DNA of 1,285 bases from a phage, in sequence record M65239.1. One strand, 5' to 3'. Below, in pieces: positions 7 to 1,269 of this stretch. Each line of letters starts with the position of its first letter. Within the stretch, counting starts at the first letter, position 1. Position numbers and translations under genes: made by a program. Below the pieces are notes generated by a model. It saw nothing but the letters and a program-made list of their open reading frames with translations, had not been told where the DNA came from and did not search any database.

Positions 7-86
7 AATTCATCAGTGATAGTTACGTTACGCTGCGCCTTCTTTTTTTCCCTTCCAATATAAGAACTACGCAATCCGTTACTGGC

Positions 87-91
87 GGAGG
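87..91 (+). promoter_or_regulatory. Shine-Dalgarno (GGAGG) for the S gene dual starts
   Basis: GGAGG at 87-91 is 7 nt upstream of ATG 99 and 16 nt upstream of ATG 108. Confidence 0.5.
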
Positions 92-98
92 CGTTGCT

Positions 99-314
99 AT
101 GAAATCAATGGACAAAATCTCAACTGGCATTGCCTACGGAACATCTGCTGGTAGTGCGGGATACTGGTTTTTGCAGTGGTTGGATCAGGTCAGTCCGTCA
201 CAGTGGGCTGCGATTGGAGTGCTTGGAAGCCTTGTGTTGGGTTTTCTCACTTATCTGACAAATCTGTATTTCAAAATCAGAGAAGACAGACGAAAGGCTG
301 CGAGAGGTGAATAA
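99..314 (+). CDS. S: Class II holin (pinholin), phage 21 S-type; 71 aa with dual-start motif Met1-Lys2-Ser3-Met4 (long form antiholin, form starting at Met4 holin)
   Basis: ORF 99..314 (71 codons, stop TAA 312-314). The protein has two predicted transmembrane segments, a weakly hydrophobic Gly/Ala/Ser-rich TMD1 ([22 protein letters not shown]) and a more hydrophobic TMD2 ([23 protein letters not shown]), followed by a highly charged C-terminal tail ([13 protein letters not shown]). Two in-frame ATGs at 99 and 108 are separated by a Lys codon. GGAGG at 87-91 lies 7 nt upstream of the first ATG. The sequence matches my recollection of phage 21 S21; this was not verified by alignment. Confidence 0.9.
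304..307 (+). promoter_or_regulatory. Shine-Dalgarno (GAGG) for R, located within the 3' end of S
   Basis: GAGG at 304-307 is 6 nt upstream of the R ATG at 314. Together with the overlapping stop/start this suggests translational coupling. Confidence 0.4.
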
Positions 315-811
315 TGCCTCCATCATTACGAAAAGCCGTTGCTGCTGCTATTGGTGGCGGAGCAATTGCTATAGCATCAGTGTTAATCACTGGCCCAAGT
401 GGTAACGATGGTCTGGAAGGTGTCAGCTACATACCATACAAAGATATTGTTGGTGTATGGACTGTATGTCACGGGCATACAGGAAAAGACATCATGCTCG
501 GTAAAACGTATACCAAAGCAGAATGCAAAGCCCTCCTGAATAAAGACCTTGCCACGGTCGCCAGACAAATTAACCCGTACATCAAAGTCGATATACCGGA
601 AACAATGCGCGGCGCTCTTTACTCATTGCTTTACAACGTGGGTGCTGGCAATTTCAGAACATCGACGCTTCTTCGTAAAATAAACCAGGGCGATATCAAA
701 GGCGCATGTGATCAGCTACGTCGCTGGACATATGCTGGCGGTAAGCAATGGAAAGGTCTCATGACTCGTCGTGAGATTGAGCGTGAAATCTGTTTGTGGG
801 GTCAGCAATGA
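314..811 (+). CDS. R: SAR (signal-anchor-release) endolysin, T4-lysozyme-like muramidase family (phage 21 R21-type); 165 aa
   Basis: ORF 314..811 (stop TGA 809-811). The N-terminus has a short basic stretch (LRK) followed by a Gly/Ala-rich weakly hydrophobic segment ([20 protein letters not shown]) typical of a SAR domain. A lysozyme-type catalytic motif is present, with Glu35 (416-418), Asp44 (443-445) and Thr50 (461-463) in GLEG...[13 protein letters not shown]. The start ATG overlaps the S stop (TAATG, 312-316), and a GAGG at 304-307 is a plausible Shine-Dalgarno. Confidence 0.9.
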
Positions 812-1269
812 ACAGAGTAACCGCGATTATCTCCGCTCTGGTTATCTGCATCATCGTCTGCCTGTCATGGGCTGTTAATCATTACCGTGATAACGCCATT
901 ACCTACAAAGCCCAGCGCGACAAAAATGCCAGAGAACTGACGCTGGCGAACCGGGTAATTACTGACATACAGATGCGTCAGCGTGATGTTGCTGCGCTCG
1001 ATGCAAAATACACGAAGGAGTTAGCTGATGCGAAAGCTGAAAATGATGCTCTGCGTGATGATGTTGCCGCTGGTCGTCGTCGGTTGCACATCAAAGCAGT
1101 CTGTCAGTCAGTGCGTGAAGCCACGACTGCCTCCGGCGTGGATAATGCAGCCTCCCCCCGACTGGCAGACACCGCTGAACGGGATTATTTCACCCTCAGA
1201 GAGAGGCTGATCACTATGCAAAAACAACTGGAAGGAACCCAGAAGTATATTAATGAGCAGTGCAGATAG
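808..1269 (+). CDS. Rz: Rz, inner-membrane spanin (i-spanin) subunit; 153 aa
   Basis: ATG at 808 overlaps the R stop (ATGA, 808-811). The N-terminus [23 protein letters not shown] is a type II signal-anchor TMD. The remainder is charged and rich in Ala/Arg/Asp/Glu/Gln, as expected for a periplasmic coiled-coil, with Cys residues in HIKAVCQSV and near the C-terminus (NEQCR). It closely resembles lambda Rz from memory. The ORF track extends the frame to a GTG at 796, but the ATG at 808 is preferred. Confidence 0.85.
1015..1020 (+). promoter_or_regulatory. Shine-Dalgarno (AAGGAG) for embedded Rz1, inside the Rz coding sequence
   Basis: AAGGAG at 1015-1020 is 7 nt upstream of the Rz1 ATG at 1028. 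Confidence 0.55.
1028..1210 (+). CDS. Rz1: Rz1, outer-membrane lipoprotein spanin (o-spanin) subunit; 60 aa precursor, encoded entirely within Rz in the +1 frame
   Basis: ORF 1028..1210 is in frame +1 relative to Rz. The N-terminal signal peptide [20 protein letters not shown] ends in a lipobox (VVGC), with the lipid-modified Cys20 at 1085-1087. The mature 40-residue part is proline-rich (8 Pro) and contains one further Cys. A strong Shine-Dalgarno AAGGAG at 1015-1020 lies 7 nt upstream of the ATG. Confidence 0.85.

Follow-up and report, generated by a model that had tools for sequence, protein, structure and literature searches.

Dual start of the pinholin gene S21 of coliphage 21, its predicted leader hairpin and its conservation among relatives

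The two in-frame ATG codons at the head of the holin gene of coliphage 21 were read as a dual start from which the antiholin S2171 and the pinholin S2168 are made. A probability of about 95 % is given to this reading, with the opposing functions of the products taken from later papers that cite the primary work and from the annotation of record OL657228. The dual start of S21 is already known and experimentally characterised, belongs to textbook knowledge and is one of two model cases of a lysis clock made from a one-gene holin/antiholin. It is a real, functional translational motif that can be recognised from sequence alone, as was done in a first-pass annotation of this DNA, and it opens no new question. 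The additions made here are small and incremental: counts across the family, the recurrence of a hairpin that sequesters the Shine–Dalgarno (SD) sequence, and the lack of a second SD-like element for Met4 in phage 21.

The window (the whole stretch of DNA analysed, 1285 bases) starts with GAATTC and ends with ATCGAT. Its best megablast match in the phage collection was Escherichia phage 21 (OL657228; 98.6 % identity over bases 7–1285), and the endolysin R21 matched PDB 3HDE over its full length (E 7e-111). Both matches identify the S-R-Rz/Rz1 cassette of phage 21, and by sequence comparison the window is the EcoRI–ClaI lysis cassette of this coliphage (S21, SAR endolysin R21, Rz and Rz1). S21 is the first cassette gene and lies directly upstream of the endolysin (order: holin, SAR endolysin, Rz, Rz1). 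The features, with the evidence for each, were as follows:

69..94, plus strand: leader RNA hairpin predicted to sequester the Shine–Dalgarno sequence; 69–72 pair with 91–94 and 75–80 with 84–89, loop 81–83
87..91, plus strand: Shine–Dalgarno sequence GGAGG, 7 nt upstream of Met1 and 16 nt upstream of Met4; marked as ribosome binding site by OL657228
99..314, plus strand: S21, class II holin, 71 codons; PF04971, hydropathy
99..101, plus strand: ATG, Met1, start of S21-71 (antiholin); sequence, ORF list, OL657228 annotation
102..104, plus strand: AAA, Lys2, extra positive charge distinguishing antiholin from holin; sequence, literature, family conservation
108..110, plus strand: ATG, Met4, start of S21-68 (pinholin); sequence, OL657228 annotation, invariant in protein alignment
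314..811, plus strand: R21 SAR endolysin, lysozyme of 165 codons; PF00959, PDB 3HDE match, OL657228 annotation
808..1269, plus strand: Rz i-spanin; PF03245, OL657228 annotation
1028..1210, plus strand: Rz1 o-spanin lipoprotein, lying entirely within Rz (+1 frame); PF06085, OL657228 annotation

Bases 55–330, which hold the leader, both starts and the whole S21 gene, were identical to OL657228. The window differed from this record at 18 places, none of them inside S21: indels at 28–54 (a T/C-rich run), GC/CG inversions at 628/629 and 952/953, and point differences at 361, 364, 370, 379, 676, 1125 and 1128. They have the look of early sequencing mistakes or of differences between stocks, GC/CG inversions being typical of old gel reads. 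Four third-codon-position changes cluster in the SAR-domain codons of R21, and the inversion at 628/629 alters two R21 residues (Leu-Leu against Phe-Val). The cassette is tightly coupled, TAATG forming the S21 stop and R21 start (312–316) and ATGA the R21 stop and Rz start (808–811). An NCBIfam search gave no match for S21, Rz or Rz1, and a promoter/terminator scan gave nothing relevant close to the start region.

S21 matched PF04971 (Phage_holin_2_1, "Bacteriophage P21 holin S") with 122.2 bits (cut-off 26, E 8.6e-36, residues 5–67), and 99–314 was assigned as S21 of the lambdoid coliphage 21, the prototype class II holin (pinholin). Hydropathy calculation gave a mean Kyte–Doolittle value of 0.52 for TMD1 (about residues 7–28; 55 % Gly/Ala/Ser/Thr, no charged residues) and of 1.50 for the hydrophobic TMD2 (about residues 36–58). 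The C-terminal tail (59–71) is highly charged, with six Lys/Arg and three Asp/Glu. A weakly hydrophobic TMD1 is consistent with its published exit from the membrane. R21 carries an N-terminal SAR-like segment (residues 8–27, 65 % Gly/Ala/Ser/Thr), and OL657228 annotates it as a SAR endolysin.

The open reading frame 99..314 encodes 71 amino acids from Met1 (MKSMDKIST...), so that initiation at Met4 (MDK...) gives 68. The in-frame ATG codons at 99 and 108 with 71- and 68-residue products, as described in the first-pass annotation, were borne out by the sequence and the ORF list. Its heading gave the motif correctly and Lys does lie between the ATGs, but they are separated by two codons (Lys-Ser, with TCA at 105–107 in frame between Lys2 and Met4) and not by the Lys codon alone. 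OL657228 annotates 99–314 as "antiholin, S21-71 product of dual start, PMID:2019562" and 108–314 as "holin class II, S21-68 product of dual start"; its ribosome binding site is GGAGG at 87–91, the sole plus-strand copy in the window, and the record marks no further site for S21-68.

A start of S21 further upstream, as in gene-caller versions of 86–124 aa, was rejected; position 99 is the first start codon past the upstream stop, and the extensions read through the leader. Automatic callers often extend the ORF in this way (proteins P0001–P0004, P0007, P0009, P0047 and P0048), and the resulting "holins" of 86–124 aa translate the hairpin and SD region, which masks the dual start in protein databases.

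The spacing ATG-N6-ATG was counted twice in the window, against 1.49 ± 1.39 expected from shuffles, and its mere occurrence has no significance; the dual-start motif matters because it stands at the head of the holin ORF, is conserved in relatives and is backed by published experiments. That the motif is about as frequent by chance as observed would suit a gene in which a single start is used in vivo, with Met4 as no more than an internal methionine or Met1 as an upstream ATG that stays silent, and in which no antiholin is made. Met4 lacks its own SD sequence, with GGAGG 16 nt away, and judged by sequence it would be expected to initiate poorly. However, both products and their opposing functions are reported in several papers and annotated in OL657228, Met4 is invariant in the protein alignment, and both ATGs are kept across the family while the intervening codons change. 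Use of one start only is therefore regarded as extremely improbable.

The antiholin mechanism was established between 1999 and 2010. Bonovich and Young are said to have altered the Met1 and Met4 codons in 1991 and to have seen earlier lysis without Met1. We take theirs to be the 1991 paper cited in OL657228, and its content is presumably the start-codon mutagenesis that had been proposed in the first-pass annotation. As stated in later papers, the dual-start motif of S21 yields the antiholin S2171 and the holin S2168 (citing Barenboim et al. 1999, Mol Microbiol 32:715; Park et al. 2006, PNAS 103:19713). S2168 is described there as the lysis effector, whose TMD1 exits the membrane, whereupon TMD2 forms heptameric pinholes of ∼2 nm (also citing Pang et al. 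2009/2010). In S2171 the extra N-terminal Lys is stated to impede TMD1 externalisation; up to the moment of triggering, S2168 is kept in inactive dimers by S2171, which then turns active itself, and the S2171:S2168 ratio sets lysis timing. Both the 71-aa and the 68-aa species are reported in the cited literature, as are different lysis phenotypes for Met1 and Met4 start mutants and a delay of S2168-dependent triggering in trans by co-expressed S2171.

Applied to the window, the dual start would work as follows. Ribosomes would start at Met1 (99) to give S2171 (MKSMDK...) or at Met4 (108) to give S2168 (MDK...), and each product would insert with two transmembrane domains. The weakly hydrophobic TMD1 of S2168 would leave the bilayer and free TMD2 to assemble small heptameric pinholes; these would depolarise the membrane, upon which the membrane-tethered SAR endolysin R21 would be released and activated. 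In S2171, Lys2 would add a cytoplasmic positive charge and slow the exit of TMD1, so that S2168 would be trapped in inactive dimers and triggering delayed. After depolarisation of the membrane, S2171 would become active too. The earlier proposal that the longer form is the antiholin by virtue of its extra positive charge, and the shorter form the holin, is supported by the OL657228 annotation and by the literature. As a refinement, S21 is a pinholin with a SAR endolysin and not a large-hole holin of the lambda type.

The family sample was drawn from viral contigs (80 loci) and from bacterial contigs limited to one genome per species (80 loci); 161 loci were collapsed to 83 distinct 5′ contexts. 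In 80 of the 83 contexts two ATGs with one or two codons between them were present, and in 75 of these 80 Lys or Arg lies between both Met residues. The most frequent starts among the 80 were MKSM (26), MYRM (24), MRM (9), MLRM (7) and MKM (5), the remainder being MYQM (4), MHRM (3), MIRM (1) and MDQM (1). The basic residue varies in position and codon (K2 in MKSM; R3 in MYRM, MLRM and MHRM), and Met4 is an invariant column in a protein alignment of 25 sequences (A2). In a divergent branch (L133, L136 and L139–L141; 56–68 % identity), Leu or Ile replaces Met4 (about 385–410), and a new ATG-(AGG/AGA/CGA/AAA)-ATG pair with Arg/Lys between lies two codons upstream. This pattern of two ATGs and a basic residue, including the new pair of the divergent branch, argues for selection on two starts with a charge difference.

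A sub-clade with MYQM, MDQM, MSQM, MFQM or MNQM has both ATGs three codons apart with no basic residue between them, so the charge rule does not hold throughout the family. The longer product of the MYQM type gains no positive charge, and the charge-based logic of the antiholin would not extend to these members. Alleles of the MYQM or MDQM type occur, for example, in E. albertii or Stx-prophage relatives. Members of this sub-clade are the loci L062, L072, L078, L106, L107 and L146 (start region at about 390–415 of each locus) and the proteins P0016, P0091 (a cluster of 985 members), P0114 and P0115; the MDQM start adds a negative charge to the longer product.

For the choice between the two starts of phage 21, the anti-SD duplex energy was −9.5 kcal/mol in the Met1 window and +0.4 kcal/mol in the Met4 window, which confirms the first-pass statement that the spacing of the single GGAGG favours the first ATG. 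Among the relatives, the Met1-placed element was strong in all (median −9.9 kcal/mol) and the Met4-placed element weak (median −2.7 kcal/mol), that of phage 21 being the weakest of the 80. With a strong Met1 element and the weakest Met4 element, the description of a "single GGAGG" was thus accurate. An SD sequence of its own for Met4, as found in many relatives, was rejected for phage 21 on the energy of +0.4. In most relatives a further run of purines (GAGAG, GGAG, GAGG or GGGG) follows the main SD, ahead of Met1 and ∼10 nt before Met4; in phage 21 bases 92–98 read GCGTTGCT in its place, where TGAGAGC is typical of the family.

Local mRNA structure had been suspected in the first-pass annotation, and the folding check was run: one predicted hairpin covers GGAGG and a competing fold covers Met1. 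The hairpin at 69–94 (−11.3 kcal/mol, z −2.0; 7 of 200 shuffles folded equally well) pairs four of the five GGAGG bases, leaving out G90, and was retained in fold contexts of 71–121 nt. The competing fold pairs 89–102 with 120–135 (−12.3 kcal/mol) and would occlude Met1 while leaving Met4 in a loop; longer folds favour the hairpin at 69–94.

An equivalent hairpin was predicted nearly everywhere in the 83 contexts (mean −11.3 kcal/mol, SD pairing probability 0.77), with inner-stem variants CCGTT/GCGG, CCGA/TCGG, CCGC/GCG, CGGC/GCCG, CAC/GTG and CCCC/GGGG. In an unbiased MAFFT alignment of 42 leaders, 86 % of the named helix was paired, against 32–58 % with the partner slid, and CG↔GC swaps occurred at two helix pairs (13–14 and 10 sequences). 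Double-change cells numbered 24, against 14.4 ± 2.1 in shuffles, and the observed score was reached by none of 500 shuffles, in a test whose helix was derived from the same sequences and is favoured by this. When the upstream arm alone was shuffled, −8.8 instead of −11.3 kcal/mol was obtained (pairing 0.61 against 0.77, mean z −1.1); since the SD still pairs fairly well, the C-rich/G-rich composition explains part of the signal. RNAalifold returned no consensus structure for the 42-leader MAFFT alignment, in which loop lengths vary and the 5′ arm is out of register. These doubts touch the RNA-structure step only, and none stands against the identity of the gene or the dual-start reading.

Start choice in phage 21 would be set by one strong GGAGG that is optimally placed for Met1 yet locked in the hairpin at 69–94. 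From the predicted folds we infer that this hairpin would throttle initiation at Met1, as in the leader of lambda S. Met4, which lies in an A-rich AAATCA stretch, would be reached from the same GGAGG at long spacing or with little help from the SD. A literature search linking Barenboim's S21 work to a stem-loop or Shine–Dalgarno sequence gave no match, and Barenboim 1999 may already have settled the question of hairpin and start choice.

Nothing within S21 differs from the published phage 21 gene (Barenboim et al. 1999; Park et al. 2006), the locus being the same. The closest analogue is lambda S (S107 antiholin/S105 holin), which has the same translational logic and leader hairpin in a different protein. 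It shares two in-frame ATGs with Lys between them (ATG AAG ATG), and its longer form is annotated as holin/anti-holin. The lambda leader (TCCCCTTATTGGGGGTAAGAC ATG AAG ATG) folds into a hairpin of −9.7 kcal/mol with the same layout as in S21, the G-rich 3′ arm being the ribosome binding site and ending a few nt before Met1; the stem-loop with this site reportedly fixes the S105:S107 ratio at about 2:1. The starts are spaced as Met1/Met3 in lambda S and Met1/Met4 in S21. The lambda protein is unrelated (class I, three TMDs, large holes, soluble endolysin), whereas S21 has two TMDs, pinholes and a SAR endolysin. The leader of the divergent branch, CCCC(N3-4)GGGGGT(A/G)AGGC (L133, L136 and L139–L141), closely resembles that of lambda S (TCCCCTTATTGGGGGTAAGAC), an indication that a translational leader module is common to, or passed between, unrelated holin genes.

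Such likeness could also mean that both starts are used, with the longer product only a slightly slower holin and the motif kept as an exchanged module of the late-operon leader rather than as a selected antiholin. Hairpin and dual start are alike in lambda S and in the divergent class II branch (CCCC..GGGGGTAAGGC ATG CGA ATG), in two unrelated holin genes, which fits modular exchange among lambdoid phages; the MYQM, MDQM or MSQM sub-clade keeps its starts without an added positive charge, and by published accounts S2171 becomes an active holin once triggering occurs. The literature gives S2171 a dominant inhibitory role, however, and Lys or Arg is retained between the Met residues in 75 of 80 contexts at differing positions and codons, which points to selection on the charge itself. 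A slower holin on a borrowed leader is thus considered very unlikely, and the dual start is read as a source of antiholin and pinholin.

A wider proposal, that in the PF04971 family the SD-sequestering hairpin co-varies with the dual start as a conserved translational module resembling that of lambda S, is put forward as an unlikely, tentative one. If it were true, phage 21 would be an outlier of its family, having lost the second purine tract before Met4, and the MYQM/MDQM sub-clade, which keeps two starts with no charge difference, would point to a charge-independent use of the dual start.

Dual-start pinholins with two TMDs, in which an upstream in-frame start adds positive charge, have also been proposed for Lactococcus phage TP712 (Hol88/Hol74) and Shewanella LambdaSo (S); they have been interpreted by analogy with S2171/S2168. 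By the published descriptions, the extension of the TP712 protein is longer than that of S21 (14 residues, seven positive charges), and LambdaSo S has a longer extension with up to three starts.

Homologues of S21 of the enterobacterial type (73–100 % identical) were also found on contigs labelled Segatella copri, Nanosynbacter, Bacillota, Veillonella parvula, Geobacteraceae, Xanthomonas pisi and Alkalicoccobacillus (MAGs or genomes; loci L082, L085, L088, L091, L096, L110, L138 and L152). These oddly labelled contigs are mostly short and are most likely mis-binned or contaminant.
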